From assembly GCA_017461425.1 (NCBI GenBank), contig JAFTXY010000010.1:1-49709 (forward strand): 49,709 bases of DNA. The letters run 5' to 3'. The position numbers were made by a program, and so were the translations under genes. Shown here piece after piece: positions 1 through 47,561 of the stretch. The notes beneath the pieces were generated by a model. That model ran no database searches and was not told the DNA's origin. It saw nothing but the letters and a program-made list of their open reading frames with translations. The DNA comes from Candidatus Gastranaerophilales bacterium (lineage in GTDB: Bacteria > Cyanobacteriota > Vampirovibrionia > Gastranaerophilales > Gastranaerophilaceae). How positions within the stretch are numbered: the stretch's first letter is position 1; each line of letters starts with the position of its first letter.

Positions 1-113
1 GCTTCACTCTTGGGGTACGATTTCGCACTCGGCACCAGCTCACCGCGGCTGCCGTCGTGCTCATACACCTATGCGCTCGTTTGCTCGTTAAGCCAAGTCT
101 GGCTAAACTCGCT
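1..113. repeat. GC-rich repeat element, left copy, truncated by the window edge. Related in inverted orientation to 5913-6120; contains the hairpin agccaagtctggct.
   Basis: About 55% GC against ~28% in the flanks. The 17-mer aagccaagtctggctaa plus flanks aligns to the reverse complement of 5958-6030 and 6068-6111. Confidence 0.5.
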
Positions 114-665
114 TCACTCACGTGTTCCATACAGGATTTGTGCTGGAGTTAATTCTTCCTGAACAGGTTTTCCGTTATAGCTTAAATTATCTTCTTGAGC
201 TAAATCTCCGATTTTGTAAAACATTTTAATTAGCTCAGGGTGATAAATTAAACCTAATTCAGAAAAAATCTCTTTTAATTTAGGTGAAGCAAATTGACTA
301 TAAGCATCACTAGCAACAGTCATATATTCTCTCAATTTGATAGAACTATTACTTGGAATTTCATTATCTTCTTTAAATAATTGGTTGTATTTAGCTAAAT
401 TGTTTTCAAGCTTTGTTTCTTCGTCTTTATCATACATACTTTTTTGTTTTCTAGACATTTCCAAAGCAATATCTAATAGCATTTCAACTGATTCTTGTGA
501 AAGATTTAATTTTTTAGCAATAGGCAAAAACTTAGCCTTTAATTCTTCATCCAAAGTAAAATCTTCTAAATTAGAGAACCTAGAGTAATCGTATTCATTT
601 GGCATACCAAATAATTTTTCGTTTTTTGTATCTTTTAAATATATATTTTGTAATTGTTCTTGCAT
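114..665 (-). CDS. Hypothetical alpha-helical protein, possibly a phage scaffold/head-assembly protein (183 aa).
   Basis: Long ORF in a phage packaging-gene context, charged and helical composition. No diagnostic motif. Confidence 0.45.
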   Translation of the reverse strand: MQEQLQNIYLKDTKNEKLFGMPNEYDYSRFSNLEDFTLDEELKAKFLPIAKKLNLSQESVEMLLDIALEMSRKQKSMYDKDEETKLENNLAKYNQLFKEDNEIPSNSSIKLREYMTVASDAYSQFASPKLKEIFSELGLIYHPELIKMFYKIGDLAQEDNLSYNGKPVQEELTPAQILYGTRE

Positions 666-713
666 AAATATCCTTTCTATGTGTTATAATTTTATTGTTA
701 TGGAGGAGTATTA

Positions 714-1148
714 ATGAAAAAGATTTTATTTTTAAGTGCATTATTAGGATTAATATTTATAAGTTCTCAAGCAGATGCAAATCAAATGAAATTTTATGAA
801 GCAATTAAGACATGTGAGACATTTGAACAACTTGGCGCAATTCCATATAAATCACAAATTTTCGACATAAAAGTCAATATCGAAAAAAAGCGTAACAAAT
901 GCGTATACACAGAAAAAATTTTCCAAGGAAAAGACTATCATTTACTTACTTGCAACTTTAAAATGGAAGATTTGGACTACATTTCAAATTCTATGAAAAG
1001 ATTCACAGAATCTTATCCAAAACAAATGGAAAAGAATAGAATTTTTGAAGCCAAAATGACAACTAATGCAGAAATTTACAACAACTACATTGCTGACCCT
1101 AAATATTGCACAATAACTAACTCGCTTAAGAAACAACAAGCTTTTTAA
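714..1148 (+). CDS. Secreted hypothetical protein with N-terminal signal peptide (144 aa).
   Basis: GGAGG RBS 6 nt upstream of the ATG. N-terminus MKKILFLSALLGLIFISSQADA is a typical Sec signal. Confidence 0.55.
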   Translation: MKKILFLSALLGLIFISSQADANQMKFYEAIKTCETFEQLGAIPYKSQIFDIKVNIEKKRNKCVYTEKIFQGKDYHLLTCNFKMEDLDYISNSMKRFTESYPKQMEKNRIFEAKMTTNAEIYNNYIADPKYCTITNSLKKQQAF

Positions 1149-2040
1149 AATAATCTAAATTCTTTTTAATATCATTAAGAAAAATTTCCATTCTTCTTTT
1201 TACAAGAATGGTTTTTTCTTTTTCGTCAATTTTTTTATTTACAGAATAAAAATAATTAAAATCATCCTCAAGCTGCAAAATAAAATCGTATCTTTGTTTA
1301 TCATCAAATTTTTGTAATAAAATTGCTGAATTTACAAGCTTTAATTCATCAATTAATGATGTTTTTCTAAAAGTTGTTAAAAGGGACTTATATCGAGTTA
1401 AAATATTGATATCTTTTAAATCTAATTTATTTTTATATGCCGATAAATCAAGTTTATTAAACTCGTCAAGATCATCTAATATCAAATTTCGCAATTTTAG
1501 AAATAATTTATAATCTTTTTTGGGTGTAGCATTGTTTAAATAATCGGAATCTTGCTTACTGATTGCAGATTTAAAATCTTCTTCAAACTTTAATATTAAA
1601 GCCTTGAATTGAAGTTCATTATATTTTTTTATTTTCGATATCCAATTAATTGCTTCTTGTGCTTTATTATAAATTTCGAATAATTTTTCATCATTATCCT
1701 TTGAAATCGAAGCCAAAATCAAAGAATTTTGAATAAAATTTTGATAAACATCCATTGCCCAAAATTCAAATTGAATTTTATAATGTTTATTTAATTCATC
1801 AACAAAAAATTCTTTTTTTGATTGGATTACAGAATCAATATTATGAAAATCAATATCTTTTTTTAAATTTAAAACTTCATTATCAAATTTTTCAATAAAT
1901 TTTTCATAATTATCAATAGCATTTTTTGATTCTAACTGAATAAAGCCGTCATCAGAAAACAATAAATTACGAACTAATAAATCCAATTTATTAATAAAAT
2001 CAATATAACGAGCGCTCAATATAACATTTTTATCAAACAT
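1126..2040 (-). CDS. Hypothetical protein, possible phage head morphogenesis/minor capsid protein (304 aa).
   Basis: Sits immediately downstream of the putative portal gene on the same strand. No motif recognised. Confidence 0.4.
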   Translation of the reverse strand: MFDKNVILSARYIDFINKLDLLVRNLLFSDDGFIQLESKNAIDNYEKFIEKFDNEVLNLKKDIDFHNIDSVIQSKKEFFVDELNKHYKIQFEFWAMDVYQNFIQNSLILASISKDNDEKLFEIYNKAQEAINWISKIKKYNELQFKALILKFEEDFKSAISKQDSDYLNNATPKKDYKLFLKLRNLILDDLDEFNKLDLSAYKNKLDLKDINILTRYKSLLTTFRKTSLIDELKLVNSAILLQKFDDKQRYDFILQLEDDFNYFYSVNKKIDEKEKTILVKRRMEIFLNDIKKNLDYFKKLVVS

Positions 2041-2049
2041 TACTACCTC

Positions 2050-3684
2050 CTAAATTATTCCAAAACGAGATAATAACTCAGAACCATAAGAATCAACCCC
2101 GCCCATATTTTGGATAATTTGAGTACCTTGAGATAATACATCAAGCTGTTGTTTTTGAAGCATACTATTAGAATTTTGCTCACGAATTTTTTCTAATTCA
2201 AATGATGAAACTAATTGCGTTGGGCTAATATTTGCAAAAGTTGCATAATCTTCGATTATTTTTTCACCATTTAATTTAGATTTCAAAACAGGGTCAATAG
2301 CATTTGCGATATTAGAAACAAAAGTTGTAAATCTTTCAATACTAGAAATATTAGCGACTTTTTGAGCTTGAGCCAAACTAGATACAAATTCTATTTTAAG
2401 ATTATTGTTTTTATATTCTTCTTTTAAAGGTTGCAGTATGCCAACACGAAGTTCTTCATCATAAATCCAATCCAAAATTTGTCTTAAAGCAGTATGAATT
2501 TGTTCTAATAATGGAGATAATAAGACCATTTTTTCTTCTTTTAATTCATTGACCTCGGTTGCCGTTCTGCCACGTTGTGCGGTTGATAAAATCATTGCAA
2601 ATAAATCATTATAAAAGTGTTCTTTAATTGCTTGTTTTAATTCATCTTTTTCTTGCTTTAATTCCAAAACTCTTGGGTTTACTTCATAAACAGGAGTAAT
2701 ACCTCTTCCGTTTTCATCTTCTTCAATATAGGCACCTGGAACATCTGCAAGTTTTTTATTTTTTAAACTTGCAGGACCCTTGTATGTAGGACAAACAATT
2801 TTTTTAACAGCTTTTGCATATTCTTTAACCATGGTCATTAATTGCTTAACATCCGCCAAGGCATTAATTCCAGGAGATTCTTGAGGATAATCAATGTCGG
2901 ATGAATAACCAGATTCAAAAACAACATATGGGAATTTTGAAAAACCTTTTATTGATAGGAATTCATTTTTTCCGGATAAAATTACAACTGAAATAAATTT
3001 TGAAAATTTTGAATTCAATCTTTTAGACTTATAAAATTTATTAGGTTCTATAAAATGAATTAATTCGTATTGTTTCAATGGGTTTTTAATTGCGACTTGC
3101 TGAATTTCAATAGGGCAATTTGAACCGAATTTTTCAACAATATTTTTTGCTGTTTCCATATAAACTCGACAAAATGTATCAATTTTACCTTTTGAATTTT
3201 TAGCATAAAAATATGAACCAATAGGAAGAACCTTAAAATTAACAACATTGTCATAATCTGACTCTAAGCTCATGCATCCAAATCCAAAAATACCAATTTG
3301 TTTATATATTTCAGGCAAGCATTGATAAAAATTTGAACTATACAAAATTTGTCTTGTTAGCTCTTCTTGTTTAGAGCACCATTTTTTCAAATAAAAATCA
3401 TTATTTAAATCTATATTTGGAAGCTGAGTTTTAAACCAACGATTTGTAGGGCTTGTAGCACCTGACATCATTCCTGATGAAAAATTTCTAAGTGCGATTA
3501 ATGGCGTTGAATCAATTATTTTTCTATTTTTTACAATTGGTTTTCTTGAGTTCCTTGCAATAAATTGAACACTTCTTGGAGAAAAATAATCAGCAAGCTC
3601 TTGCAAGTCAGGCTTTATAATGTTAAAAACATCCTCCATTTCTTTTTTTCGTCTTAAGAAATAATCGACTTCGTAAAATATCAT
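2050..3684 (-). CDS. Putative phage portal protein (544 aa).
   Basis: Size and position directly downstream of the large terminase gene on the same strand. Inferred from gene order, not from a motif. Confidence 0.45.
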   Translation of the reverse strand: MIFYEVDYFLRRKKEMEDVFNIIKPDLQELADYFSPRSVQFIARNSRKPIVKNRKIIDSTPLIALRNFSSGMMSGATSPTNRWFKTQLPNIDLNNDFYLKKWCSKQEELTRQILYSSNFYQCLPEIYKQIGIFGFGCMSLESDYDNVVNFKVLPIGSYFYAKNSKGKIDTFCRVYMETAKNIVEKFGSNCPIEIQQVAIKNPLKQYELIHFIEPNKFYKSKRLNSKFSKFISVVILSGKNEFLSIKGFSKFPYVVFESGYSSDIDYPQESPGINALADVKQLMTMVKEYAKAVKKIVCPTYKGPASLKNKKLADVPGAYIEEDENGRGITPVYEVNPRVLELKQEKDELKQAIKEHFYNDLFAMILSTAQRGRTATEVNELKEEKMVLLSPLLEQIHTALRQILDWIYDEELRVGILQPLKEEYKNNNLKIEFVSSLAQAQKVANISSIERFTTFVSNIANAIDPVLKSKLNGEKIIEDYATFANISPTQLVSSFELEKIREQNSNSMLQKQQLDVLSQGTQIIQNMGGVDSYGSELLSRFGII

Positions 3685-3687
3685 TAG

Positions 3688-3894
3688 TTATTCTCCTAAT
3701 AAAGTTTTTTTCTTATTGACAGAAGTATCTTCTAATCCCAACATAGAAGTTTTAATATTTTGTTTATAAGCAGATAGTTCTTTGTTATTTTGAGAATTTT
3801 TTGTAATATCCGCATCTGCTTCATGGATTTTTACAATATCCTCTTGAATAGTTTCTTTTGGAATTTTTGGTGTTGATGTTTTAACAAAACACAT
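3688..3894 (-). CDS. Small hypothetical protein (68 aa) between the terminase and portal genes.
   Basis: ORF tightly packed between two phage genes (gaps 3 and 19 nt). Confidence 0.3.
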   Translation of the reverse strand: MCFVKTSTPKIPKETIQEDIVKIHEADADITKNSQNNKELSAYKQNIKTSMLGLEDTSVNKKKTLLGE

Positions 3895-3913
3895 ACATTT
3901 CTCCTTTCATTAA

Positions 3914-5236
3914 TTAATCAAATGGTTCAAATTCACTCTCTACTATCGAATCAACCTGAAATGAATTTTGAATTAAGATATTAGAACAATAATTAATTGC
4001 ATAAAGCGCCATCATGGCACAGTCAGCGAAATCAGGGCTTTCATTTTGCTCTTTTCTTAATTCTTTTTTATCTTGAATTGCAATTAAACCATTGGGTTTA
4101 TAAGTCTTTTTTAAATATTCAAGCTGTCTTATTGAATTTTTATCTGTTAATTTTAAATAACCTTTTTCAAGATAATCTCTTAACGCTAAATACCCATCTG
4201 CTCTTGCATTTATTGCAAATTTTGAACAAGCTTTTTTTGCGCCACGAAACCCAATTGTTGAATTAATTATTTTTTGAATACTAATCCAAATTGGATAACC
4301 TAAGCCATCAGCATCCATAATAAGAATTTTGGGTTGCCATTTTGAATATAAAGATATTATTTTACCTTGAGTGACATCAGTATCAGATTCAGACCAACTA
4401 ATTGTTTCTTTTTCAAGCCAAGTAGTACTATTTTGTTGAACAAATAATTTAGCGACACATAAATCAGCACCAGATGCCGACAAATCTACACTCATAACCG
4501 AATTAACAAAATAAGAAGAGTCAACTTCAATTTTTAGATTAACTGAATTATCAAGAATTTCTGATGTAATTAAATATTCATTATTGTTCATTAAAGGATA
4601 TCCAAGCCAAATATGATTATAATCTGATATATTGGTATTTTTGGAAATTTCAGCTTCTTTAATAATTTTTTCATCTACAAAAGGATTATCAAAATAACAT
4701 ATATTAATGTGCAAACAATCTTTTCTTTTTGCGCAAAAATTATAAACAGAATCAAATCTTGTATATCTGTTCATTGTGAAGATTATTACAGAATTCTTTT
4801 TTCTAATTGTTGGAATTATGACATCTAAAGTAGGTTTTGTAATCGATTGAGCTTCATCAATCCAAAGAATATCAATACCTTCCAAACCTTTAATATTAAC
4901 TTTTCCTTGTTCCCTAAAACCTTTGAAAAAGATTTTAGAACCAGTATTTTTATTTGTTAAGCTATCATTTTTTATTTCAAAATCAAGATTGTATTGATTA
5001 ATTAAATCAATAAAAACGGTTTTAACAGATTCGTTAATAGAATTTTGAATCTCTCTACCGCAACATATTCTGACTCGACGATTTTCGCAAATATACAAAA
5101 GAAAACGGGCAGTGCTTTGTGTTTTTCCAGAAGCCCTGCCTCCTTCGAAGAGAAAATAAGAATAATGGTTGAAATGAAAAATAAAGGGATAGAGTTTAGG
5201 AGGGATGTTTAAAATTTCTGGCAAAACATAATTCAT
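3914..5236 (-). CDS. terL: Phage terminase large subunit (PBSX/Terminase_6-like ATPase + nuclease), 440 aa.
   Basis: Walker A FEGGRASGKTQS near the N-terminus, Walker B-like ILWIDEAQ. Size and C-terminal acidic nuclease-like region are typical. Confidence 0.8.
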   Translation of the reverse strand: MNYVLPEILNIPPKLYPFIFHFNHYSYFLFEGGRASGKTQSTARFLLYICENRRVRICCGREIQNSINESVKTVFIDLINQYNLDFEIKNDSLTNKNTGSKIFFKGFREQGKVNIKGLEGIDILWIDEAQSITKPTLDVIIPTIRKKNSVIIFTMNRYTRFDSVYNFCAKRKDCLHINICYFDNPFVDEKIIKEAEISKNTNISDYNHIWLGYPLMNNNEYLITSEILDNSVNLKIEVDSSYFVNSVMSVDLSASGADLCVAKLFVQQNSTTWLEKETISWSESDTDVTQGKIISLYSKWQPKILIMDADGLGYPIWISIQKIINSTIGFRGAKKACSKFAINARADGYLALRDYLEKGYLKLTDKNSIRQLEYLKKTYKPNGLIAIQDKKELRKEQNESPDFADCAMMALYAINYCSNILIQNSFQVDSIVESEFEPFD

Positions 5237-5239
5237 TAT

Positions 5240-5536
5240 TTATTCAAAATCTTCTCCTATGTTAAGTTTTAATTGTTTGCCATCCAAAGTTATTTGATTC
5301 ATTTGAACTTTGTTTAATGTTTTGATTTCTTTATTTGAGTACAAGCCTGCAATTTTTGCTTTATTTTCAATAGCTCTTAAAGCTGCAGAAATATTAGGAT
5401 TTCCGTTTTTATCAATACAATTTAGAGCAATTTCTTTGAGTTCATCAAACTCCCTTAGAGCATCTTCTTGCGTATATTTATTTTCATTTAAGGAAAAGTT
5501 GCTATATTTAATCAGTGAATTATTTTTATCACTCAT
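5240..5536 (-). CDS. Putative terminase small subunit (98 aa).
   Basis: Immediately upstream of terL with overlapping/adjacent stop-start. AALRAIENKAKIAGLYS resembles Terminase_2 small-subunit sequences. Confidence 0.4.
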   Translation of the reverse strand: MSDKNNSLIKYSNFSLNENKYTQEDALREFDELKEIALNCIDKNGNPNISAALRAIENKAKIAGLYSNKEIKTLNKVQMNQITLDGKQLKLNIGEDFE

Positions 5537-5912
5537 TTTCTATTTTTTTAATCAAAACTTTATTTCCGTAAAAATCGCAAGCATACTGTTCTATTGCAAT
5601 AATTTTTCCATTTTTTTTAATTTCTATATTTTTCCCATATTTAAAACCAGATGGCGCTTTATATTTGTTTTTATAGCCCAAAAGTGTTGATGCTACTTCC
5701 TTTTTAAATTTTTCCTTTATCTTAACAGCACCGCCAGAATAAAAATATTGTTCATAAAAATTTTTATGTTCATTATCGCAATAGAAATATAATGCCATTT
5801 TTTTATTACAAATTGGGCAATTGGCAATATATAATCTTCTATTAACTTGTGATTCTTTGTCAATCAAAAACCAAATATCTTCAGCTTGAAATACACTATT
5901 ACAATGACGCAT
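5529..5912 (-). CDS. Hypothetical Cys-rich (zinc-finger-like) protein (127 aa), first gene of the packaging operon.
   Basis: CPICNK...C..EH pattern. The start abuts the GC-rich repeat. Confidence 0.4.
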   Translation of the reverse strand: MRHCNSVFQAEDIWFLIDKESQVNRRLYIANCPICNKKMALYFYCDNEHKNFYEQYFYSGGAVKIKEKFKKEVASTLLGYKNKYKAPSGFKYGKNIEIKKNGKIIAIEQYACDFYGNKVLIKKIENE

Positions 5913-6120
5913 AGATACACTTATCCTATATTATTTCGTCAGCCTCGTTTCTCAACCTCAATCAAGTGAGCTTAGCCAGACGTGGCTTAGCGAGCGCAGA
6001 TTGAGGCAAAGGTGTGTGAGCAATGGTACAGCAAGCGATGAGCTTGGTGGACTATTGCAAAACCGTACCTCAATCAAGTGAGCTTAGCCAGACTTGGCTT
6101 TCACTTGGGTGATACAAATT
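5913..6120. repeat. GC-rich repeat region holding two related hairpin-containing units (5958-6008 and 6068-6111), inverted relative to 1-113.
   Basis: cctcaatcaagtgagcttagccagac(g/t)tggct occurs twice. Internal stems agcca-N4-tggct and cctcaatc...gattgagg. Reverse complement aligns to 40-113. Confidence 0.5.
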
Positions 6121-6222
6121 TGAATTGTCCGAAAATTACTTTTTTAGATTAACATATGTTTTTTAAAAAAGCTCGTTTTTTAGCCAAATCTTGTAAGACC
6201 TTACAAAAATATAGTATTTTTG

Positions 6223-6251
6223 TTGCTATTTTTTTATTTTTATTTTATAAT
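6223..6251 (+). promoter_or_regulatory. Candidate sigma70-type promoter for tRNA-His (-35 ttgcta, 17-nt spacer, -10 tataat).
   Basis: Hexamers read directly at 6223-6228 and 6246-6251, ~28 nt upstream of the tRNA 5' end. Confidence 0.35.
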
Positions 6252-6279
6252 AACAAGGCGCAAGCTGTAAGCAAATTAT

Positions 6280-6356
6280 GGCGCCTGTCGTCAAGTGGTC
6301 AAGACCTCGGATTGTGGTTCCGATATGCATGGGTTCGAATCCCATCAGGCGCCCCA
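6280..6356 (+). tRNA. tRNA-His (anticodon GTG) with encoded G-1 and 3' CCA.
   Basis: Cloverleaf folds by hand: acceptor GCGCCTG/CAGGCGC, G-1 paired to C73, anticodon arm TCGGA-TTGTGGT-TCCGA, T-arm ATGGG-TTCGAAT-CCCAT. The 3' half nearly matches E. coli tRNA-His. Confidence 0.92.
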
Positions 6357-6473
6357 TATATCAAAATCAACTCCCCTATTGGGAGTTTTTTTGTTGGTCG
6401 CCCTCGGGAGCAATCGCTCCGCTTTTGCCCTCTTGAAAAATGCTCAATGGTTCGCATTTTTCTGCGGCAGAGT
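6343..6473 (+). repeat. att-like repeat copy A (native attB side): tRNA-His 3' end (14 nt) + 74-nt downstream segment D + 43-nt segment S.
   Basis: Direct comparison with the copies at 6474-6561, 15429-15564 and 17946-18035. Confidence 0.8.
6369..6392 (+). terminator. Intrinsic terminator of tRNA-His (ctccc-ctatt-gggag + T7). It is part of the repeated att unit.
   Basis: GC stem with U-run directly after the tRNA. The same hairpin recurs at 6500-6523, 15446-15468 and 17988-18010. Confidence 0.7.
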
Positions 6474-6561
6474 CATCAGGCGCCCCATATATCAAAATCA
6501 ACTCCCCTATTGGGAGTTTTTTTGTTGGTCGCCCTCAGGAACAATCGCTCCGCTTTTGCCC
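6474..6561 (+). repeat. att-like repeat copy B: duplicated tRNA-His 3' end (catcaggcgcccca) + segment D' with SNPs (ctcaggaacaatcgc).
   Basis: About 97% identical to 6343-6430. Diverges into unique DNA at 6562. Confidence 0.8.
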
Positions 6562-6589
6562 TTATACATTGTCTTGCAGGTTGAGAATT

Positions 6590-6657
6590 TCCGACTTCAA
6601 AACGAGAATTTAACTCTCGAAATGAGAATTTTGGACAACTAGTTTTGAAATGTCGGA
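6590..6657. promoter_or_regulatory. Imperfect inverted repeat (tccgacttcaaaac ... gttttgaaatgtcgga) with three gagaattt direct repeats. Candidate recombinase-binding (res/att-like) site next to the resolvase gene.
   Basis: Arms at 6590-6603 and 6642-6657 are reverse complements with a 2-nt indel. Lies between the att copy and the serine recombinase gene. Confidence 0.3.
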
Positions 6658-6680
6658 CAGTTATTTTTGAAAACCTTTTT

Positions 6681-6694
6681 AGGAATAATTATTC
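6681..6694. promoter_or_regulatory. Perfect 14-bp palindrome ggaataattattcc upstream of the resolvase gene. Candidate operator/recombinase site.
   Basis: Perfect dyad symmetry. Shares the aataattatt core with the palindrome at 15587-15610. Confidence 0.3.
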
Positions 6695-6813
6695 CAATAA
6701 ATTTTCTCAAATTGGTTCCTATATTTTGGAGGAGTTCCTACAAAGAAAACATCTGTTAACAATAGTATGAATTTATACAAGAATAAGCAAAAATAAAGGT
6801 TTTTATCGAAACT

Positions 6814-7410
6814 ATGGCAACAAAAGCGTTTTAAAGAGTATCGACAGTACTTCAAGATACTGAAAAGAATAAGATTGATATACTACAATTTGCAAACAGC
6901 AAAAAACTAGGCAATGTAGAATTTATCGAAGAACATTGTTCCGGTCGAATAAGCTACAAAGATAGAAAATTAGGGAAACTACTGGAGTCTATGTATAAAG
7001 GTGATATTTTGATAGTACCAGAGCTTTCAAGGATTGCTCGCTCTGTTACACAAATACTTGAAGTAATAAAGATTACTAAAGATAAGGGTATTACACTTTA
7101 TTCACTAAAGGAAAACTTCTCTAATGAAGAGGACTCAATTTCTGCCACTGTAACAAGTACGATTTTTGCTCTTGTTGCTCAAATTGAAAGAGAATTAATA
7201 AGCTTGCGTACTCGTGAAGCTTTGCAAGCTCGTAAAGCTCAAGGAGTAAAACTCGGTAGACCCCAAGGCAAAGGTAAATCAAAGCTTGATGCCCACAAAG
7301 ACGATATAATAAAGATGTTATCTTTTGGAGTCCCAAAGACTCTTATAGCTAGGCAGTACAATACATCTGTAGGGAATTTATATAATTTTCTTGAAAAATC
7401 AAAATCCTAA
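6814..7410 (+). pseudogene. Small serine recombinase (resolvase/invertase family) disrupted by an in-frame TAA at codon 7 (6832-6834), just before the catalytic RVST serine motif.
   Basis: Reading frame MATKAF*RVSTVLQDTEKNKIDILQF...EEHCSGRISYKDRKLGKLLESMYKGDILIVPELSRIARS... continues into ORF 6991..7410, which carries the resolvase C-terminal HTH (PKTLIARQYNTSVGNLYNFL). Re-initiation at M57 would lack the catalytic serine. Confidence 0.75.
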
Positions 7411-7432
7411 AGACCTATGAAGTTAGGTCTTC
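7409..7432. terminator. Bidirectional hairpin (agaccta-tgaagt-taggtct) between the convergent resolvase and nuclease genes.
   Basis: 7-bp perfect stem located between two converging stop codons. Confidence 0.4.
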
Positions 7433-7446
7433 ATGGAGAATGTAAT

Positions 7447-8625
7447 TTAAAAAGAAACAGGACAAGGATTTACTATGTAGCAAGCTCTTTCATATAATTC
7501 ATCATAGGTTATGATTTCTACATTTCTACAATCACGTCTGTATCGCTCAAAAGTATTCGACTTAATCTTATCATTTATATTACCATTAGGATTTGGAATT
7601 TCTTTGCTATAATTACCAATGATAAAAACAACTTTAGAGTCTTGTACGTCGGCTTGTATTATTCTACCATCACTAGTAACAAATTCTTTTGAAGAATAGT
7701 TTTCAATTAAATCCTGTTTTTGAGCTAAACATTGACTAATCCCATCTATAAAATCAGAACTGAAAGACCATGTATTTGTTCTTGCAGTGCTTCTTCTAGC
7801 ATTAGTAAATATTGGAGTAGTATGCTTTTTTAACTCTACTAGAGTAGTATATTTATCGATGCAAACAAAATCACTTATAGGAGAGCCATGTCCACTTGTA
7901 TCAGGAGTTCCAATGTTAGCTTGAGGAATAATATCTCTTTGAAAAAATAATCTTAATGATATACCTGCAAATATCCAAGTATTAGTTTCAAAAAAAGCTT
8001 GCCAATCGTCTTCTGAAGTGTCGTCATCTTCGAGCAATGCTTTGAATGTTTCTAAAGATTTTTCTTTTGAAGTATCTAACAATCTTTCTAATTGTTGATA
8101 TGACAAATCTTTATCTTGTATAAATTCTTGTATTGTTTGTAGTTGTTCATCCACCTCGAAGCTATTAAACGTATCAATTAATTGGTCTTTACTAATAACT
8201 TTGTACTTGTTTTCAAACTCTCCCAGTTCAATTAAGTCATTAAATCCTTGAATAAAAGAAATCATTTCCCAAAATTTTGAAGCAATATCCCCCTCTTTAA
8301 GTGATATATTTACCTTTTCTTTTGAACCATCTTGGACTTGAGAGGTTACGTCTGCTTTTAGCTTATAAAAAGTAGGACGAGCAATAAATTTATTAGACTC
8401 TCTATTCTTATAAAAAGTCCAACTGCAAAAAGTATTGACTCTAGGATTGTTTGAGAGTTTAAACTCGGTAACAATAGACATTTTATCGTCTCTTTTGTTA
8501 ATATAACAGTGGTTACCGTCATTCGCCAAGCTTATCTCAATATCTCCCCAACTATCGCTATTTGTATCAAAGGATATTTTTTCAAAACCAGTAACAATAT
8601 CTTCCCAATTAATTAGCATTAACAT
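7447..8625 (-). CDS. DUF4263/Shedu-like putative PD-(D/E)xK nuclease, last gene of the defence operon (~392 aa).
   Basis: C-terminal motif GSPISDFVCIDKYTTLVELKK fits PD...ExK. The track start at 8634 is a TTG. An ATG at 8625 with a GAGG RBS is the more likely start, overlapping the upstream gene by 17 nt. Confidence 0.45.
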   Translation of the reverse strand: MLMLINWEDIVTGFEKISFDTNSDSWGDIEISLANDGNHCYINKRDDKMSIVTEFKLSNNPRVNTFCSWTFYKNRESNKFIARPTFYKLKADVTSQVQDGSKEKVNISLKEGDIASKFWEMISFIQGFNDLIELGEFENKYKVISKDQLIDTFNSFEVDEQLQTIQEFIQDKDLSYQQLERLLDTSKEKSLETFKALLEDDDTSEDDWQAFFETNTWIFAGISLRLFFQRDIIPQANIGTPDTSGHGSPISDFVCIDKYTTLVELKKHTTPIFTNARRSTARTNTWSFSSDFIDGISQCLAQKQDLIENYSSKEFVTSDGRIIQADVQDSKVVFIIGNYSKEIPNPNGNINDKIKSNTFERYRRDCRNVEIITYDELYERACYIVNPCPVSF

Positions 8626-11600
8626 TATCCTCAAAGTTTAATTTAGGTAAGCTTTTGACGATTTTTACTGTCGCTACAGACAATGAAATTACACTCAGGA
8701 GCAGGTCAAGTATGTATCTCGGTTTTCCGTGTTCTTCTGCCCAGTCATTCGGGTCATTCTTAATTTGACTGTCTTTGTTTATAGTTACTTGATAACGATC
8801 CATTACCCATTCAATAGCACTCTTACCATTTACCACATAGTCATAAGCAACTTCAGGTATATTTGTTATTCTGATATACGGATTATAAATAATTTCAGAC
8901 TTGTCTTCCTTACTTTTGAATCGCATTTTATCAACAGTAAATATTCCGCTTTCTTCTCCAATTACTTTTACTGTTGCAAGAGGAGCTTGGTCTTCATAGT
9001 TTAGATGTAATTTTGCCAAATCTCTGCCTGCATTAGAGAATGCCCAAAAATCTTCTACTTTATCAACCAATGGAATTCTTGGAAGCATTTTCTTTAAATC
9101 GGCAGCAAACTTGGTTCGATAATCTTCACTATGCAAGATGCCGTAAACATAATAGAAAATATCTTCTTTTGTTACCTTATGACCATATTTTTCTTTAGCA
9201 AGATTATGTATGAAGTCTGTTATACCGTCATGACGAATATATTTATCATTGTCTTCTTCTTGGTTTCCGAATAAAGATTGTTGTTGTGAGTTCTTCTTCT
9301 CATTTTCTTCATACCAATATAGAGGAAAACTCTGTGATTTTTCTATCATATCTAAACAAGGAATACTATTAACTATTAATGAAGAAAAATCCTTATTAGA
9401 CCCTGTTCCTGAAATGGAAATACAAATATTCTCATGCTTATTTGTTGGGAATATTTTGGGTAATTGATAAAGCATTTCATTAAAAGAATTATCTATATAA
9501 CCATTTTGTTTCACAAAGGGTCTATAAATACCTTCATATATTTTGTCAGGGTTAAATCGGCATTCTTTATTCAATTTTAGGCTATTTTTTAATGCTCTTG
9601 ACCAACTGATTTTTGTACTATCAGTATTTATAAATTCTTCAACTTCAATTTCTCTATTGTTTAAATAATCAATTCTTTGCGAATTATAGAAATTTATAGT
9701 ATTTTGCATGTTAATTATTAATTGTTCTTTTGAAGAATTGTAACACCAAGCATCACGACTAGTTACAACACCCCCCGAATATATAGAGAAAAATTTATTT
9801 TTATTTGTAGCATCTTTATCACCTATTGTCGGATATGTTCCAAATAAATCACTTCTCTGATTTAACCAATCATTGTGTTCATTTGGTTTAAGCATTGTTG
9901 GTTCAAATTTTGGCGATAATACAGAACCAACATTTTTAACTATATCAAGTTTTTCTTCTCTTGATAAATAATCACCTATATCATGGTAATATATTGTTAC
10001 TTTTTCTTTTTTGTCATTAGGATTCTTTACAAGTAAAGTTATTGATATAGGTGTTCTGCTACCCTCACCAAAGACATTACCTTTTTCTTTCCTTCTTTGT
10101 TCTCCTGATGTTCTTGCATTACCTCTTAAATTATATACATAAACAGAAGAAAATTCAGTCTCTAAACAATGTCGGAAGCCATCCATACCATTTGAATCCA
10201 ACCAACTACCATTAGATACATAGCAAATAATTCCGCCATTTGAATTTAACCTATCAGATGCCCATCTAAATGCTTTAATATAACTATCGTATAGTCCTTT
10301 ATTTAGAGTTGCATTAGAGTACCTAACATATGTTTCTGAAATCTTGGAATCTAATTTTTCATATTTTTGATTTTTTGCATTATCATTTTCTGACTTTTGA
10401 CCGATTGAATATGGTGGATTACCTACAATAACTGTAATAGGAGTCTCTTTTTGTTTTCGTACTCGTTTTACGTTACGAGGGAAGAATTCTGACGGTATCT
10501 TTTGTTGGTCTTCTTCTCCAAGTTGGAAAGTATCCGTTAAACATATACCCTCAAAGTTTTGGTATTCTCCTTCTTTAGCTCCGATTAAATCATGGTATGT
10601 GTTTTCAATGTTTATGGACGCTATATAATATGCTAACAGGACTATTTCGTTTGCATGAAGTTCCTCTTCATATTTACGTTTTAGGTCTTCTTTTTTAATA
10701 CGTCCTGACTGAAGTAGTCTTGTAATAAAAGTACCAGTACCCGTGAACGGGTCAAGGATATGCACATTTTTATCTGATATATCTCTGTTGAATTCTTTTT
10801 TCAGTACGTCAGCTACAGAGTTGATAATAAAATCAACAACTTCAACAGGAGTATAGACTATGCCCAGTTTCTCAACTACTTTAGGGAGTGCCGTTTTGAA
10901 GAATTTGTCATACAATTCAATAATGACTTTTTGCTTACCCTCAGCATTATCTATACCTTCGCAACGTTGTCTTACGTCAGCGTAGAATTTTTCTAAGGTT
11001 TCAGTTTCTTTATCAATAGCGTTTTCGTCAAGTATATCAAGAATTTTCTGCATAGCTATTGAAACAGAGTTATTACCGATAAAGGAATAATTTTCAAACA
11101 GAGCTTCAAATACAGGACGTGTGATAATATGCTGAGCTAACATTTCAATAGCTTCTTCCTGCATAATGTACGGGTTAATATTTGTATGCAGACCGTCCAT
11201 AAATTCTTTGAAATCGGCTTTGTATTTTTCGTCTGCTACAATACGGGTAATTCTATCCACGTGTCTTTGTGCAATCTGAGCTATATCTTTTGCCCACTGT
11301 TCCCAGTATTTACGGCTTCCGACTTTTTGAACCATACGGGCATATATTACACTTTGAAGTTCCCCAAATTGCATGGTCAGTTGTTTTACGACATTATCAG
11401 AGAGCTTCTCTTCAACACGTTCACGTTTATTTGTAGCAGAGTCTTTAGCTCCACCATCGTCTTCATGTCTAGGGACGCCACCGACAATAACAGTGCCATT
11501 GTCATTCGGGTTCTTTTTATTAAGGTCAATCTTATTTATCATAGCATTGAACCTGTCATCGTGTGCTCTAAGTGCGTTCAAGACAGTCCAAACAACTTTA

Positions 11601-13531
11601 AAGTTATCATTCTTATCAAGAGCTTCTTCGGGTTTAACATTTAAAGGTACTGCAACAGGAATGATAATGTATCCGTATTTTTTACCCTGAGCACGTCTCA
11701 TAACACGTCCTACGGATTGTACAACATCAACCTGTGAATTTCTTGCTGATAAAAACATAACTGCATCCAAAGATGGAACATCCACACCTTCAGAAAGACA
11801 GCGTACATTAGTAAGAATTCTACATTCTTTGCCATCTGTAGGTGCGTGTTTTAACCAAGAAAGTTTTTCATCTCTCATAGAAGCTCCCATCCCACCATCA
11901 ACGTGGTCTGCTTCTACGTTTACAACTTCATTACGTTCTTCTTCAGATAAGCTTTCATAGTAGCTTTCTGAGTGTGTATTAAAGATATTTTTAATTTTTT
12001 GAGATGCTTTAATATTAGGACAAAATGCTACTGCTGTGTGCATAGGGTTAGGGTCAGTTGCACTCAATAATTCAGCTTCATTTTCTTGTCCTGCATATTT
12101 AATCATGCGTTTTGATAAAGCATTTATACAACCTATAAGCTTTGTTGCATCATCTGTATTAATTTCATACTCAGGATTAGAAATTGCTTTTTGCAAGGTA
12201 TCAGGTACTTGGTCGTCAGTCAAAGTTAATACAAGTACTTTGTAATCAGATAACAGGTTATTTTGTACTGCTTCCCCAAATCCTATACGATAAATTTCTT
12301 CTCCATATAATCCTTCATCATCCATAGAACAGAGAATACAGTTATTATCTGTAGCTTTTTGTTTTGCATTATCATCGTATAACCTAGGGGTAGCCGTCAT
12401 ATATAAACGTTTTTTAGACTTAATTATCTGATTATCATGAACTTTAGTAAAAGCAGACTCTTCTTTATTACCTGCAAGAATAACACCTGTTGTACGGTGT
12501 GCTTCATCGCATATAATTAAGTCAAATTCTGCTTTATCTCCAAATTCAGATATAAGTTCTGCCTGAGCTTTAGCAATAACATCTATTGACTGATATGTAG
12601 AGAATACAACAGTCATTCCTTCTTTTTTAGTCGCCTGTATCCACTTGAATTGTTTAACAATGTTATGAACATTAGTTGATGCAGGAAGTGCTAAATCCGT
12701 TACTGAGGTTAGGTTATCATCAGTTTCATTCTTTGAAGTTTTCTTACTTGCTGTAGGGTCAGAACATATACAGATGGCATTTAACTTTTCTTCTGCTTCA
12801 GAATACCATTCATTAAGAGTTTGTCCTAAAAGTGCTATTGACGGTACTAAAAAAAGTATAAGTCCTTTTCCCCCTGTTTCATTTTCTGCAATTTTCAAAG
12901 AAGTATATGTCTTACCTGTACCGCAAGCCATAATGAGTTTACCTCTATTTTTTGTTTTAAAATATTCATGGGTATCATTTATAGCTTTGAGCTGATGTTT
13001 CATTGGAGTCTTCTTTTTAGCACGTGCTCCACTTCCTGATATTCCCTCATCAAGTTTATCCCAATCAACAGGAGACTCTTCAAGTTCTAATAAACTTAAT
13101 CTCGATACAGGTGGGTCTTGGTTTTTAATAGTATTTTCAGCTTCAGAGTTCCATTTATTAGTAGTTGAAATCCAAAGTCTATGAGTGAACTTTTGTTGAG
13201 TTCCGTTTTCATCAAAGAAAATTTTACTTGAAGTTGCAAGGAATGTATCTACATCGGGTTTTGTTATACGGTTATTTTCTTGAAAACATTTGCATTGAAC
13301 TGCCCAGTATTCATCTTTGTATGTTTTAACAACAATATCAATACCTATATCTTTTCCGCCAAAATCACTTCTATATGGAAATTCATTCCACAGCCAAACT
13401 TCTTTCAACTCTGAAGTATAACGAGGGTCTGTTTTTAGGTATGCTTGCATAAGTCTTTCAAAACGTGTACCTTTATCACGTTCAGAAAATGCTATCTTTC
13501 TATACTTTTCTAATATCTGTTCAAATCCCAT
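8609..13531 (-). CDS. Type ISP-like single-polypeptide restriction-modification enzyme, 1640 aa: N-terminal Mrr-like PD-(D/E)xK nuclease, SF2 DEAH translocase, gamma-class N6-adenine methyltransferase, C-terminal target-recognition domain.
   Basis: DIGIDIVV...YWAVQCK (Mrr-cat). Walker A MACGTGKTYT, DEAH box LIICDEAHR, motif III MTATP, motif VI QSVGRVMRR. MTase motif I ILDPFTGTGTF and motif IV VIVGNPPYS. Same domain order as LlaGI/LlaBIII. Confidence 0.8.
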   Translation of the reverse strand: MGFEQILEKYRKIAFSERDKGTRFERLMQAYLKTDPRYTSELKEVWLWNEFPYRSDFGGKDIGIDIVVKTYKDEYWAVQCKCFQENNRITKPDVDTFLATSSKIFFDENGTQQKFTHRLWISTTNKWNSEAENTIKNQDPPVSRLSLLELEESPVDWDKLDEGISGSGARAKKKTPMKHQLKAINDTHEYFKTKNRGKLIMACGTGKTYTSLKIAENETGGKGLILFLVPSIALLGQTLNEWYSEAEEKLNAICICSDPTASKKTSKNETDDNLTSVTDLALPASTNVHNIVKQFKWIQATKKEGMTVVFSTYQSIDVIAKAQAELISEFGDKAEFDLIICDEAHRTTGVILAGNKEESAFTKVHDNQIIKSKKRLYMTATPRLYDDNAKQKATDNNCILCSMDDEGLYGEEIYRIGFGEAVQNNLLSDYKVLVLTLTDDQVPDTLQKAISNPEYEINTDDATKLIGCINALSKRMIKYAGQENEAELLSATDPNPMHTAVAFCPNIKASQKIKNIFNTHSESYYESLSEEERNEVVNVEADHVDGGMGASMRDEKLSWLKHAPTDGKECRILTNVRCLSEGVDVPSLDAVMFLSARNSQVDVVQSVGRVMRRAQGKKYGYIIIPVAVPLNVKPEEALDKNDNFKVVWTVLNALRAHDDRFNAMINKIDLNKKNPNDNGTVIVGGVPRHEDDGGAKDSATNKRERVEEKLSDNVVKQLTMQFGELQSVIYARMVQKVGSRKYWEQWAKDIAQIAQRHVDRITRIVADEKYKADFKEFMDGLHTNINPYIMQEEAIEMLAQHIITRPVFEALFENYSFIGNNSVSIAMQKILDILDENAIDKETETLEKFYADVRQRCEGIDNAEGKQKVIIELYDKFFKTALPKVVEKLGIVYTPVEVVDFIINSVADVLKKEFNRDISDKNVHILDPFTGTGTFITRLLQSGRIKKEDLKRKYEEELHANEIVLLAYYIASINIENTYHDLIGAKEGEYQNFEGICLTDTFQLGEEDQQKIPSEFFPRNVKRVRKQKETPITVIVGNPPYSIGQKSENDNAKNQKYEKLDSKISETYVRYSNATLNKGLYDSYIKAFRWASDRLNSNGGIICYVSNGSWLDSNGMDGFRHCLETEFSSVYVYNLRGNARTSGEQRRKEKGNVFGEGSRTPISITLLVKNPNDKKEKVTIYYHDIGDYLSREEKLDIVKNVGSVLSPKFEPTMLKPNEHNDWLNQRSDLFGTYPTIGDKDATNKNKFFSIYSGGVVTSRDAWCYNSSKEQLIINMQNTINFYNSQRIDYLNNREIEVEEFINTDSTKISWSRALKNSLKLNKECRFNPDKIYEGIYRPFVKQNGYIDNSFNEMLYQLPKIFPTNKHENICISISGTGSNKDFSSLIVNSIPCLDMIEKSQSFPLYWYEENEKKNSQQQSLFGNQEEDNDKYIRHDGITDFIHNLAKEKYGHKVTKEDIFYYVYGILHSEDYRTKFAADLKKMLPRIPLVDKVEDFWAFSNAGRDLAKLHLNYEDQAPLATVKVIGEESGIFTVDKMRFKSKEDKSEIIYNPYIRITNIPEVAYDYVVNGKSAIEWVMDRYQVTINKDSQIKNDPNDWAEEHGKPRYILDLLLSVISLSVATVKIVKSLPKLNFEDNVNAN

Positions 13532-13536
13532 GTATA

Positions 13537-15000
13537 TTACCCCTCTTCAGTTTCCAGTTTCTTGTAAAATTCTACAACTTCTTTATTTGCTACAATTTTG
13601 TTATGGTCAAACCCTCTTATAATAAGTCCATCAAGAGTTCTCGTTCTACTCAATGCTACGTATGCTTGTCCGTAATCAAATATCCTATTGAAATTGACCA
13701 CCAATTTATCAAATGTCATCCCCTGAGACTTATGTATAGTTATACCATAAGCAAGACGTAAAGGGTATTGTGTCCGCTTAATCTTAGTACGTCCTTCTTT
13801 TATGTATTCAAATTCTACAGGAAGTAAATTTGCACGTACCCCATTATCAAACTGTATATCAATAGAACCACCTGTCAGCTGTTTAACTGTACCGCAACTT
13901 CCATTTGCTAATCCTTTTTTAACGTCAATATTCTTTAGAAGCATTACCCTACAACCTTCTTTAAGTTCTAGTTTTTCAGGAGCTTTACAGTCATCATTAA
14001 ACTTCTTTAATGCCATTAAATCATACTTATTAACATTCTTATTGGTTATGTCTTTAGTATTCAATACTGTTACAGATTGCTCTCCAACATCATTGTAAAT
14101 ATAAAGTTCATCTTTAGCTTCATAAGTATAAGGTCTTTCAGGTATCTCATTAAAACACTTATCATTATAGGCATCTGCATCAGCATTAGTTCCAAATATC
14201 TGAAGAATGTCTCTTGATGCTTCATATTCAGGCTCGACATCTCTTTTGTAAAATACTTTCAGGTCTTCAGCACTTGTTTTATCTATACGAACATTATTTA
14301 ATGCTTCTGAAAGTTCTTTCTCTGACTGACGTTTTACCTCTTTTAAAACAACAGGTTTTAAATTTAAGTCATTCCATGTCTGACTATTGAAGCAGAAGTC
14401 TTTTCCGTCTTCTTTCATGCGCACAGGAGGTAATTGAAAGAAATCACCAAATATGAGAACCTGAATACCACCAAAAGGTTTATCATTTTCTCGTATTGCT
14501 TTTAGAACCTCATTAACATAATCAAAGGTAATATTATCTAACATAGATATTTCATCAATAGCAAGCATTTCACAACATAGTAAAGTTTTATACAATGTAG
14601 GTTTTCTACGTATTTTACTAACAACATCTTCGACTGGTTTCTCAGCAAGTCCTATTCCTGCCCAAGAATGAAGAGTCTGTCCATTAACATTAATAGCAGA
14701 TATTCCAGTCGTACTTGTTATATGTAGCTTCTTATCATACTTTTCTTTAAGCTTATTTAGGGTATACGACTTCCCAACTCCAGCACCACCTGTAATGAAG
14801 ACATTATACCCACTATCTATAAGTGAAAGGATTTTTTTTATATTAACATCCTTAGGTTCTTCTATAGGTGTATTTATGTTGTTATCTATTCTATTTTTAT
14901 TACGAAGCCATGAGAACATAGTCTTATTATAGTATAAGAAAGCATCTTCTGTAACTTTGTTAAGTTTTATATTCGCTCTTATAATAGCAGGCAAATACAT
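13537..15000 (-). CDS. PIF1/RecD-like SF1 DNA helicase (AAA_30 + UvrD_C-like), 487 aa. First gene of the operon.
   Basis: Walker A ITGGAGVGKS. Motifs LAIDEISM, GDFFQLPPV, AYGITIHKSQGMTFDKL, YVALSRTRTLDGL. Its stop is 5 nt from the next start, and the RBS of the next gene overlaps its stop. Confidence 0.75.
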   Translation of the reverse strand: MYLPAIIRANIKLNKVTEDAFLYYNKTMFSWLRNKNRIDNNINTPIEEPKDVNIKKILSLIDSGYNVFITGGAGVGKSYTLNKLKEKYDKKLHITSTTGISAINVNGQTLHSWAGIGLAEKPVEDVVSKIRRKPTLYKTLLCCEMLAIDEISMLDNITFDYVNEVLKAIRENDKPFGGIQVLIFGDFFQLPPVRMKEDGKDFCFNSQTWNDLNLKPVVLKEVKRQSEKELSEALNNVRIDKTSAEDLKVFYKRDVEPEYEASRDILQIFGTNADADAYNDKCFNEIPERPYTYEAKDELYIYNDVGEQSVTVLNTKDITNKNVNKYDLMALKKFNDDCKAPEKLELKEGCRVMLLKNIDVKKGLANGSCGTVKQLTGGSIDIQFDNGVRANLLPVEFEYIKEGRTKIKRTQYPLRLAYGITIHKSQGMTFDKLVVNFNRIFDYGQAYVALSRTRTLDGLIIRGFDHNKIVANKEVVEFYKKLETEEG

Positions 15001-15428
15001 TTTGAATGCATATCAACAACAACACATACTATCAGTATGTAGTTCGTCGCAGGCTCCTCACTCCATATTTTAAGTACTTGTCTTTGCAGAGACACACTCT
15101 TAATTTCTTTATCTTCTCCTATTATTTTCGCTTTAAAAATTTTTACTTTTTATGATAATTATTTTTATATAAATCTCTATATAAACAGACTAAACAACAA
15201 TAGCAATAGAGTTTTGACATTTATTAATACAACAAAAAATATTAAAATTTATATAGCAATAGATATTAAGAGACACATTCAAGACCAAGTATTCTCCTAA
15301 TATTATAATAGGTTTGCATACTACGTTTGATAATAACAACTAGATTTTTATAGGTAAATCTACCTTTATCAGGTAATTCTATTGGCATTTTGTCTTCCCC
15401 TAAAGGTTCTAAAATCATCCAATCTCCA

Positions 15429-15564
15429 GCCCCATATATCAAAATCAACTCCCCTATTGGGAGTTTTTTGTTGGTCGCCCTCGGGAGCAACCGCTCCGCT
15501 TTTGCCCTCTTGAAAAATGCTCAATGGTTCGCATTTTTCTGCGGCAGAGTCATCAGGCGCCCCA
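15429..15564 (+). repeat. att-like repeat copy C: partial tRNA-His 3' end + D (T6 variant, aaccgctcc SNP) + S + tRNA 3' end (catcaggcgcccca).
   Basis: Near-identical to 6351-6487. Marks the boundary between island 1 and island 2. Confidence 0.8.
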
Positions 15565-15586
15565 TTACAATAAAAATTACAATAAG

Positions 15587-15610
15587 AGTTGCAATAATTA
15601 TTGCAACTCT
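15587..15610. promoter_or_regulatory. Perfect 24-bp palindrome gagttgcaataattattgcaactc between att copy C and the 675-aa gene. Candidate operator/recombination site.
   Basis: Perfect dyad. Preceded by tacaataa direct repeats. Confidence 0.3.
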
Positions 15611-15644
15611 TTTGTGTTATTATTAGGCAAAAGGAGTCTTTTTT

Positions 15645-17672: not shown

Positions 17673-17945
17673 AATCACTTTTGAAAAACTTTGCAGATAA
17701 AAAATCAAAGTGAATATTAGAAATTTTTCAAATTTAAGCACACCACTTCTCTATGTTAGATATAACCTCTGTTTCATGTAAACACAATTGAGTAAATTCG
17801 GCATAATTGGGTTTGCGTCTTGTCCCATTACTCGCTCCATTAAATAGACTCCTTTAGAGAGTCTATTTTAGTATGGGAATCGAACCGTTGTTTTCGCTTT
17901 GCTGCAACAATGGTTCTCCCCCTCAGAAAACGTGCCACCGGCACC

Positions 17946-18035
17946 TTTTCTGCGGCAGAGTCATCAGGCGCCCCATATATCAAAATCAACTCCCCTATTG
18001 GGAGTTTTTTGTTGGTCGCCCTCGGGAGCAATCGC
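17946..18035 (+). repeat. att-like repeat copy D: partial S + tRNA-His 3' end + 60 nt of D (T6 variant).
   Basis: Identical to the corresponding parts of copies A and C. Diverges at 18036. Confidence 0.8.
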
Positions 18036-18044
18036 ATCAAACAA

Positions 18045-47404: not shown

Positions 47405-47472
47405 TTAATGCATTTGTAGGACAATTTATTCTTGACAAACATAATTTATATTATATGATAATACTTGTCCAT

Positions 47473-47545
47473 TGGGGCGTCGCCAAGTGGTAAGGCACCT
47501 GGTTTTGGTCCAGGCATCTCGGAGGTTCGAATCCTTCCGCCCCAG
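47473..47545 (+). tRNA. tRNA-Gln (anticodon TTG). CCA not encoded.
   Basis: 5' half TGGGGCGTCGCCAAGTGGTAAGGCACCTGG nearly matches E. coli tRNA-Gln. Anticodon arm CCTGG-TTTTGGT-CCAGG, T-arm GGAGG-TTCGAAT-CCTTC, acceptor pairs with CGCCCCA + G73. Confidence 0.88.
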
Positions 47546-47561
47546 AATTTGAGAACAGTTT

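Follow-up and report, generated by a model that had tools for sequence, protein, structure and literature searches.

A premature stop codon in the small serine recombinase gene of a tRNA-His-associated defence island from a Gastranaerophilales bacterium

A link between small serine recombinases and anti-phage systems is reported to be widespread (Andersen et al., PLoS Biol 2026, PMC13552941). For the founding example, the RADS bait EF_B0058 of Enterococcus faecalis pTEF2, the authors report that defence does not need the recombinase, and they assign it no function of its own (PMC13552941). The tycheposons of Prochlorococcus target tRNAs and combine an integrase of the tyrosine or large serine type with replication genes and a cargo that varies (Hackl et al., bioRxiv 10.1101/2020.12.28.424599). 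Among them are elements inserted one after another at the same tRNA as well as degenerate remnants; partial tRNAs lie scattered, and the labelled genes include a small serine recombinase (bioRxiv 10.1101/2020.12.28.424599).

The window, which is the whole 49.7-kb stretch of DNA analysed here (49,709 nt), contains a small serine recombinase gene in an island at a tRNA-His (Table 1). Translation from position 6814 (ATG GCA ACA AAA GCG TTT TAA AGA GTA TCG ACA) gives MATKAF-stop-RVSTVLQDTE..., with the stop three codons ahead of the catalytic serine. Alignment with gamma-delta resolvase pairs F6-stop7-R8-V9-S10-T11 of the window frame with Y6-A7-R8-V9-S10-T11 of the resolvase, which bears out the placement of a TAA at codon 7, right before RVST, by the earlier note on this DNA. 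The catalytic motif F6-stop-R8-V9-S10-T11-V-L-Q14 is present, and the SRIARS stretch aligns with DRLGRD of gamma-delta resolvase. The frame from Arg8 onwards matches the Pfam Resolvase family (PF00239) with 92.6 bits (E 3e-26, cut-off 23.3), compared with 95 bits for the intact allele P0001. The C terminus scores 18.1 bits against HTH_7 (cut-off 23.8), and the alignments with Gin and gamma-delta span their HTH regions. The remainder of the 198-codon frame is intact, as had been claimed: direct translation showed no other stop until the TAA at 7408-7410, and the frame is 100% identical to P0001 save codon 7. However, it fails as an uninterrupted catalytic-domain ORF, with a TAA at codon 7 and the next in-frame start at codon 60, and its longest uninterrupted ORF in the ORF list is a residual one of 139 aa. 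The gene is a pseudogene of the small serine recombinase (resolvase/invertase) family.

Table 1. Coordinates of the features in the window
Feature	Position	Strand	Basis or remark
T7-type portal	2050-3684	-	
PBSX-type large terminase	3914-5236	-	
tRNA-His (GTG), integration target	6281-6356	+	ARAGORN; Rfam tRNA 61.7 bits
att core, last 14 nt of tRNA-His, CATCAGGCGCCCCA	6343-6356	+	4 copies vs 0.02 expected
Repeated att-flank units, 131-nt tandem duplication	6357-6562	+	Repeat families D1-D3
tRNA terminator plus about 55 nt	6357-6473	+	Followed by core copy 6474-6487 and flank copy 6488-6562
Junction segment, 150 nt	6563-6713		blastn-short: no counterpart in related loci
Conserved non-coding block 5' of recombinase	6714-6813	+	3' part of the roughly 130-nt family block; 17-locus alignment; 94% identity to L002
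Small serine recombinase pseudogene	6814-7410	+	198 codons plus stop; translation, Pfam, alignments
Premature TAA, codon 7	6832-6834	+	Ancestral TTA (Leu); T-to-A at 6833; relatives' codons
Residual 139-codon ORF from Met60	6991-7410	+	Without Arg8 and Ser10; ORF list
Hairpin terminator between convergent recombinase and sduA	7408-7433		Terminator scan
Shedu defence gene sduA (cargo)	7447-8634	-	Pfam SduA_C 3.5e-24; PADLOC SduA 3.2e-55
Type ISP / IIG single-polypeptide restriction-modification enzyme, 1640 aa (cargo)	8609-13531	-	Pfam, PADLOC
Pif1/Dda-like SF1B helicase, 487 aa (cargo)	13537-15000	-	Pfam PIF1 3e-32; PHROG Dda-like helicase 8e-63
Conserved right end of element	15001-15434		attR junction CTCCAG/CCCCA, core 15430-15434
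Third att-flank unit plus 14-nt core (15551-15564)	15435-15564	+	Island 1/island 2 boundary; repeats
Island 2, second inserted segment	15565-17961		Repeat family D2
Fourth 14-nt core plus 61-nt tRNA-downstream flank	17962-18035	+	Distal end of island array; repeats

Since gene callers annotate the 139-aa residual ORF wherever the stop occurs, its exact product was used as a look-up query for the allele in other assemblies. The exact product is present on 8 contigs, which derive from no fewer than two BioSamples and two assembly pipelines and may represent related samples of one study, and all three of the contigs that were read (L041, L042 and L043) have the TAA. L041, a 520-kb ENA scaffold of SAMN15829960, matches the window at 100% identity over 17.4 kb and presumably is where the window comes from. 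The same TAA stands in L042, which was assembled independently (Logan) from SRR12529332. L043, an ENA assembly of SAMN15829957, has two non-coding differences from the window (6519 and 6638), indicating a slightly diverged strain that inherited the stop. This contig also lacks one 131-nt repeat unit; its single remaining unit reflects either a strain difference or a repeat collapsed in assembly. The change lies at the boundary of a T-run and an A-run (TTTTTAA vs. TTTTAAA), a context prone to homopolymer errors, in which an organism with TTA might be given the stop by an assembly or sequencing artefact. However, such an artefact is hardly credible given the identical TAA on 8 contigs, among them two ENA assemblies of different BioSamples and the independent Logan assembly, and given that one of the TAA contigs belongs to a slightly diverged strain. 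Judged from these assemblies, the TAA is a real allele.

A protein search with the window recombinase returned 1270 relatives. The best match, P0001, is an intact 198-aa protein that equals the window frame at all residues except Leu7, and the contig that encodes it (L001, a Logan assembly of SRR24653857) shares 97.9% identity with the window across 919 nt. Codon 7 is TTA in L001 and TTG in L002. The comparison of orthologous islands that the earlier note had proposed returned a sense codon in every relative aligned: leucine or isoleucine (TTA, TTG, CTA, CTG, ATA, ATC or ATT) in 26 of 26 related loci, with the stop only in the window. Thus, starting from an ancestral TTA, one T-to-A transversion at 6833 accounts for the stop, and the proposal that a single nonsense change inactivates an otherwise intact small serine recombinase holds. 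The transversion turned Leu7 into a TAA, and translation ends after six residues. Besides the nonsense change, the window gene differs from the intact allele by four synonymous third-position changes (codons 68, 118, 122 and 127; dS 0.03). As nothing else separates the two genes, the loss of the recombinase is recent. The dN/dS of the recombinase family is about 0.03-0.07, with synonymous sites saturated in most pairs, indicating that the recombinase is functional and strongly constrained elsewhere. About one in ten of the related loci (3 of 38) is also disrupted, by a frameshift in L036, a truncation near residue 93 in L038 and a reduction to a 43-residue stub in L040. A single-nucleotide pseudogene in a decaying genomic island is in itself routine.

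The earlier note had named recoding or suppression of the stop as alternatives, while holding that a sense reading of TAA was not supported by the other long ORFs. The latter view agrees with our count, in which TAA ends 28 of the 42 long ORFs in the window, and this count speaks against the former, as does the finding that a stop at codon 7 occurs in no relative, which indicates that a conserved recoding signal is absent. The sequence T-TTT-TAA-A does constitute a slippery context, and readthrough, a suppressor tRNA or frameshifting at this site would allow a full-length enzyme to be made. However, a +1 slip, as read from the sequence, leads into a frame that soon terminates and never returns to the RVST frame, and the only tRNAs found in the window by ARAGORN are His-GTG and Gln-TTG. 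The probability of a bypass is therefore close to negligible. Sequence inspection of the segment between the stop and Ser10 found no in-frame ATG, GTG or TTG. The Ser10 nucleophile is required for serine recombinase chemistry, and since the next start, Met60, lies past both catalytic Arg8 and Ser10, established chemistry predicts that no active enzyme can be made from this gene. A product spanning Met60-Ser198, with part of the catalytic domain, the E-helix and the HTH, might instead be expressed and kept as a non-catalytic DNA-binding regulator. The 139-codon ORF is intact, has GGAG just 5' of its ATG at 6991 and has accumulated zero non-synonymous changes, all of which a retained regulator would account for. 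However, the absence of decay is equally expected from a very recent mutation (dS 0.03 to the intact allele), the spacing between GGAG and ATG is only 3 nt, and no relative uses a start codon at Met60, so that a retained regulator is improbable.

The related loci come almost entirely from metagenome-assembled Candidatus Gastranaerophilales / Melainabacteria genomes. In most of them, a same-strand tRNA is located roughly 5.5-6.3 kb upstream of the small recombinase, and in the tyrosine-integrase element L005 this distance is 3.5 kb. The upstream tRNAs include those for His, Leu, Ala, Asn, Asp, Val and Tyr. Abutting the tRNA is the first gene of a conserved module that fills the interval up to the small recombinase; this gene encodes a large serine recombinase (LSR) of 559-579 aa with Resolvase, Recombinase and Zn-ribbon domains. 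The LSR gene is followed by a 53-64-aa ORF, a gene for a roughly 500-aa protein with a sub-threshold match to the rolling-circle Rep family Phage_CRI (19.7 bits, cut-off 21.7), further ORFs of about 310 aa and 92-148 aa, and finally a highly conserved 95-aa ORF and one of roughly 63 aa. The LSR adjoins the tRNA in L002, L003, L046 and L048, and a tyrosine integrase takes its place in L005 (tRNA-Val) and L026-L031 (tRNA-Lys). Sequence comparisons gave 96.5% identity for the LSRs of L002 and L003, the two tRNA-His elements compared, and 22-59% for elements at other tRNAs, whereas the small recombinase remains 77-97% identical across elements. The 95-aa ORF, located two genes upstream of the small recombinase in L002 (9337-9624), is 74-98% identical despite unrelated integrases and matches PHROG families including the C-terminal part of RecE-like exonucleases; the window lacks this ORF.

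The complete 11.5-kb element L046 is bounded by a 16-nt tRNA-Leu 3'-end repeat at 4425-4440 and 15911-15926; its LSR lies leftmost and its small recombinase in the interior. The cargo 3' of the small recombinase is variable and is defence-related in all six related contexts annotated. It comprises Shedu plus Type I restriction-modification in L002 and L048, an MmeI-type enzyme in L046 and Type III-like restriction-modification in L005; in L026, the recombinase lies between a retron-type reverse transcriptase and SNF2/methylase/nuclease genes. The similarity between elements breaks off within about the last six recombinase codons (7392-7410 in the window; likewise in L003, L004 and others), and the C-terminal tails differ accordingly (...NFLEKSKS, ...NFLGRLKECS and ...NYLSRIKITPS), suggesting that the variable cargo slot starts within the 3' end of the gene. 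Exact direct repeats of the tRNA-His end were not found in L002 and L003, and in L002 only a degenerate GCCCCA junction is visible at about 19800. A second LSR gene follows straight after the cargo of the first element in L048 (20042-20597), and L009 has two LSR genes (including 13468-14889); tandem accretion at one tRNA thus appears to be recurrent. Taken from these comparisons, the canonical order of the family is tRNA, integrase (large serine or tyrosine), a module of four or five genes that includes the weak Rep-like match, small recombinase, variable anti-phage cargo and a conserved right end with a short tRNA 3'-end repeat.

In the window, direct copies of CATCAGGCGCCCCA start at 6343, 6474, 15551 and 17962, each with 60-130 nt of repeated flank. 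Between these four copies of the tRNA-His 3' end lie two segments, called island 1 and island 2. Terminator-like hairpins are present at 6369-6387 and 6500-6518 in the tandem units. The junction segment, for which a blastn-short search of 45 loci gave no match, occupies the place of the roughly 5.7-kb integrase/replication module of the relatives, and homology with L002 begins right after it, 100 nt upstream of the recombinase. The sduA gene ends 37 nt downstream of the recombinase and is followed by the Type ISP enzyme, which has the Pfam domains Type_ISP_C, ISP_coupler, Mrr_cat_2 and ResIII and matches PADLOC REase_MTase_IIG with 2294 bits. For the SF1B helicase PADLOC gives weak candidate matches only, and its defence role is putative. 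The right end of island 1, the attR junction included, shows 95% identity to positions 19777-20210 of L048, where a canonical tRNA-His element has its right end. Island 2 lies between perfect 31-nt direct repeats (15535-15565 and 17946-17976) and holds a single 675-aa orphan ORF (15645-17672, plus strand) without a recombinase of its own; the ORF has no match in Pfam, NCBIfam, PHROG or PADLOC. Chromosomal genes resume past 18035, and an Rfam scan of 5800-18200 found nothing besides the tRNA. Island 1 is thus a canonical element without its mobility module, within a tandem att array at tRNA-His.

No homologue of an LSR or tyrosine integrase was found in the 49.7-kb window. A tblastn match to the LSR at 6302-6535 was rejected as a remnant, because it consists of the reverse-translated tRNA-His (18 identical residues) plus noise with stops. 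The LSR ORF of L002 (4276-6015) overlaps the complementary strand of the tRNA-His (4258-4333), so that the last 18 residues of the protein (GAPDGIRTHAYRNHNPRS) are encoded by tRNA sequence and a spurious match to the LSR arises on any tRNA-His. The earlier note in effect took the small recombinase itself for the integrase or excisionase of the island, considered a resolvase-type enzyme at a tRNA att site unusual, and concluded that the nonsense change had fixed the island in place. The small recombinase is indeed the sole recombinase between the att repeats in the window and lies about 330 nt from an att core copy. However, next to the tRNA every canonical relative has a dedicated integrase, either an LSR or a tyrosine integrase, and it is the LSR and not the small recombinase that varies from one tRNA target to another. 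The 198-aa protein lacks the large-serine-integrase domains Recombinase (PF07508) and zinc-ribbon (PF13408), which reside in the separate 559-579-aa gene of the relatives, and the right end of the island matches that of an LSR element. An integrase role with the stop as the lock at tRNA-His is very improbable on these comparisons, and neither part of the claim can be upheld: the att-site enzyme of the relatives is another protein, and the integrase module of island 1 is missing anyway. As the tRNA-proximal integrase of the relatives is a separate gene, the small recombinase is an accessory gene, and its proximity to the tRNA in the window results from the loss of the roughly 5.7-kb module.

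The preferred reading, which we hold to be quite probable, is that of a recent nonsense pseudogene of an accessory recombinase in a degenerate defence island that is immobile for want of an integrase, whichever of the two losses came first. The island would have lost the integrase/replication module but kept the recombinase together with its upstream control block, as well as the cargo and the right end, and the stop codon would be one further decay step in a domesticated defence island. Without an integrase, the island should not be able to move by itself, stop codon or not. However, an integrase encoded elsewhere in the genome could act in trans on the att cores that remain and so mobilise it.

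The normal role of the small recombinase was approached through the non-coding block 5' of the gene. Roughly 130 nt upstream are conserved in the alignment of 17 loci, although synonymous sites of the coding sequence are saturated. The block, which is present in a single copy, contains three direct ATACAAnGAAAA motifs and an imperfect dyad (ACAATRAAA-N10-TTTYATTGT), and a promoter scan found a promoter-like site within it at 6756-6784. A conserved 13-mer, AAAACGACCGTAT, occurs once per element at -113 to -137, and no second copy was found in cis. The block may hold candidate recombinase-binding sites, or it may be only promoter and operator. When partners of the 200 nt ahead of the gene, in inverted or direct orientation, were sought within 12 kb, 11 loci gave only AT-rich chance matches, none of them recurring, and an inverted site pair of the invertase type flanking a segment near the recombinase was not found in these loci or among the repeats of the window. 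A 25-nt inverted repeat of L046 (7247-7271 and 9874-9898) that touches the upstream block was treated as a chance match; it is also present in L004, which has the same recombinase protein, and in no other locus. The PHROG label of the recombinase is 'DNA invertase'. A single site beside the gene weakly favours a resolvase-type accessory role over that of an invertase. As far as can be inferred from these features, the small recombinase most likely acts at a single site in the roughly 130-bp upstream block, in resolution or some other accessory recombination.

The surroundings of the islands show some further features. At the left end of the window (1-5912; 1-8922 of L041), phage structural genes form a block that lies entirely on the minus strand; further left in L041 it includes GP7 capsid and Bbp16 genes. 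The block ends about 370 nt from the 5' side of the tRNA-His, where L002 and L048 have a response-regulator gene instead, suggesting that a prophage or phage remnant abuts the tRNA from the other side. Two 34-nt direct repeats (5955-5988 and 6067-6100, 97% identical) are located between the phage block and the tRNA-His, where the Rfam scan gave no match. Two adjacent 505-aa ORFs on the minus strand (22346-23863 and 23923-25440) lie in the part of the window with the lowest GC content (22-23%) and have no Pfam match; they are placed amid polysaccharide-synthesis genes (Caps_synth, UbiA, LicD). The tRNA-Gln (TTG) is located at 47472-47546, near the right end of the window.

In comparison with described serine recombinases, the domain layout and the catalytic positions (Arg8, Ser10 and two later arginines) are the same as in Tn3 and gamma-delta resolvase and the Gin and Hin invertases (1zr2, 1gdt, 4m6f and 3uj3). 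The matches to PDB structures cover nearly the full length with E-values of 1e-11 to 1e-10; as Gin, gamma-delta, Tn3 and Sin match with similar E-values, these do not separate resolvases from invertases. The best curated match over the full length is the Mpi master DNA invertase family (NCBIfam NF009949, E 1.2e-45). However, membership in this family was rejected, since the score of 155.8 bits is well under the cut-off of 272, and invertible promoters with matching inverted repeats were not found. The upstream block occupies the position relative to the recombinase that res has relative to tnpR, and its motifs are no more than suggestive of subsites. No enhancer, inverted-repeat partner or second res copy was found near the small recombinase.

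The likeness to the RADS systems lies in a serine recombinase of roughly 200 aa that adjoins variable anti-phage systems, both here and in the relatives. These neighbours are Shedu and Type I, IIL, III and ISP restriction-modification, with a retron-type reverse transcriptase in relatives. The window recombinase is immediately linked to anti-phage genes, and the likeness to EF_B0058 concerns this linkage. In contrast to the RADS case, the recombinases described here belong to another phylum (Melainabacteria/Vampirovibrionia) and reside in tRNA-integrated elements with a separate integrase, and the window copy is a pseudogene. The cargo in the window is intact although the recombinase is dead. 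The window thus presents a natural case in which a defence-linked small serine recombinase was lost while its Shedu and Type ISP cargo stayed intact, in agreement with the reported dispensability of such recombinases for defence (PMC13552941).

The comparison with tycheposons covers gene content and integration pattern. Their Prochlorococcus hosts also belong to the phylum Cyanobacteriota. Integration at the 3' end of a tRNA with partial tRNA repeats is shared by the window and L046, and signs of successive insertion by the window, L048 and L009. The window has no integrase or replication genes of its own; relatives have the integrase, and their Rep-like match is sub-threshold. A further difference is the cargo, which here consists of anti-phage defence in gut bacteria. 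On a broader reading, the recombinase and its upstream block would form a resolution or cargo-exchange device that marks the edge of the defence cargo in an undescribed tycheposon-like family, and the TAA would record domestication after the loss of the mobility genes. Such a family would belong to non-photosynthetic Cyanobacteriota, and the device would work with LSRs or tyrosine integrases as interchangeable parts. We regard this broader reading as unlikely. Irrespective of it, the elements compared here make up a modular family of gut Melainabacteria, variable in integrase type and tRNA target but highly conserved in the small recombinase, which could be used for testing what small serine recombinases do.
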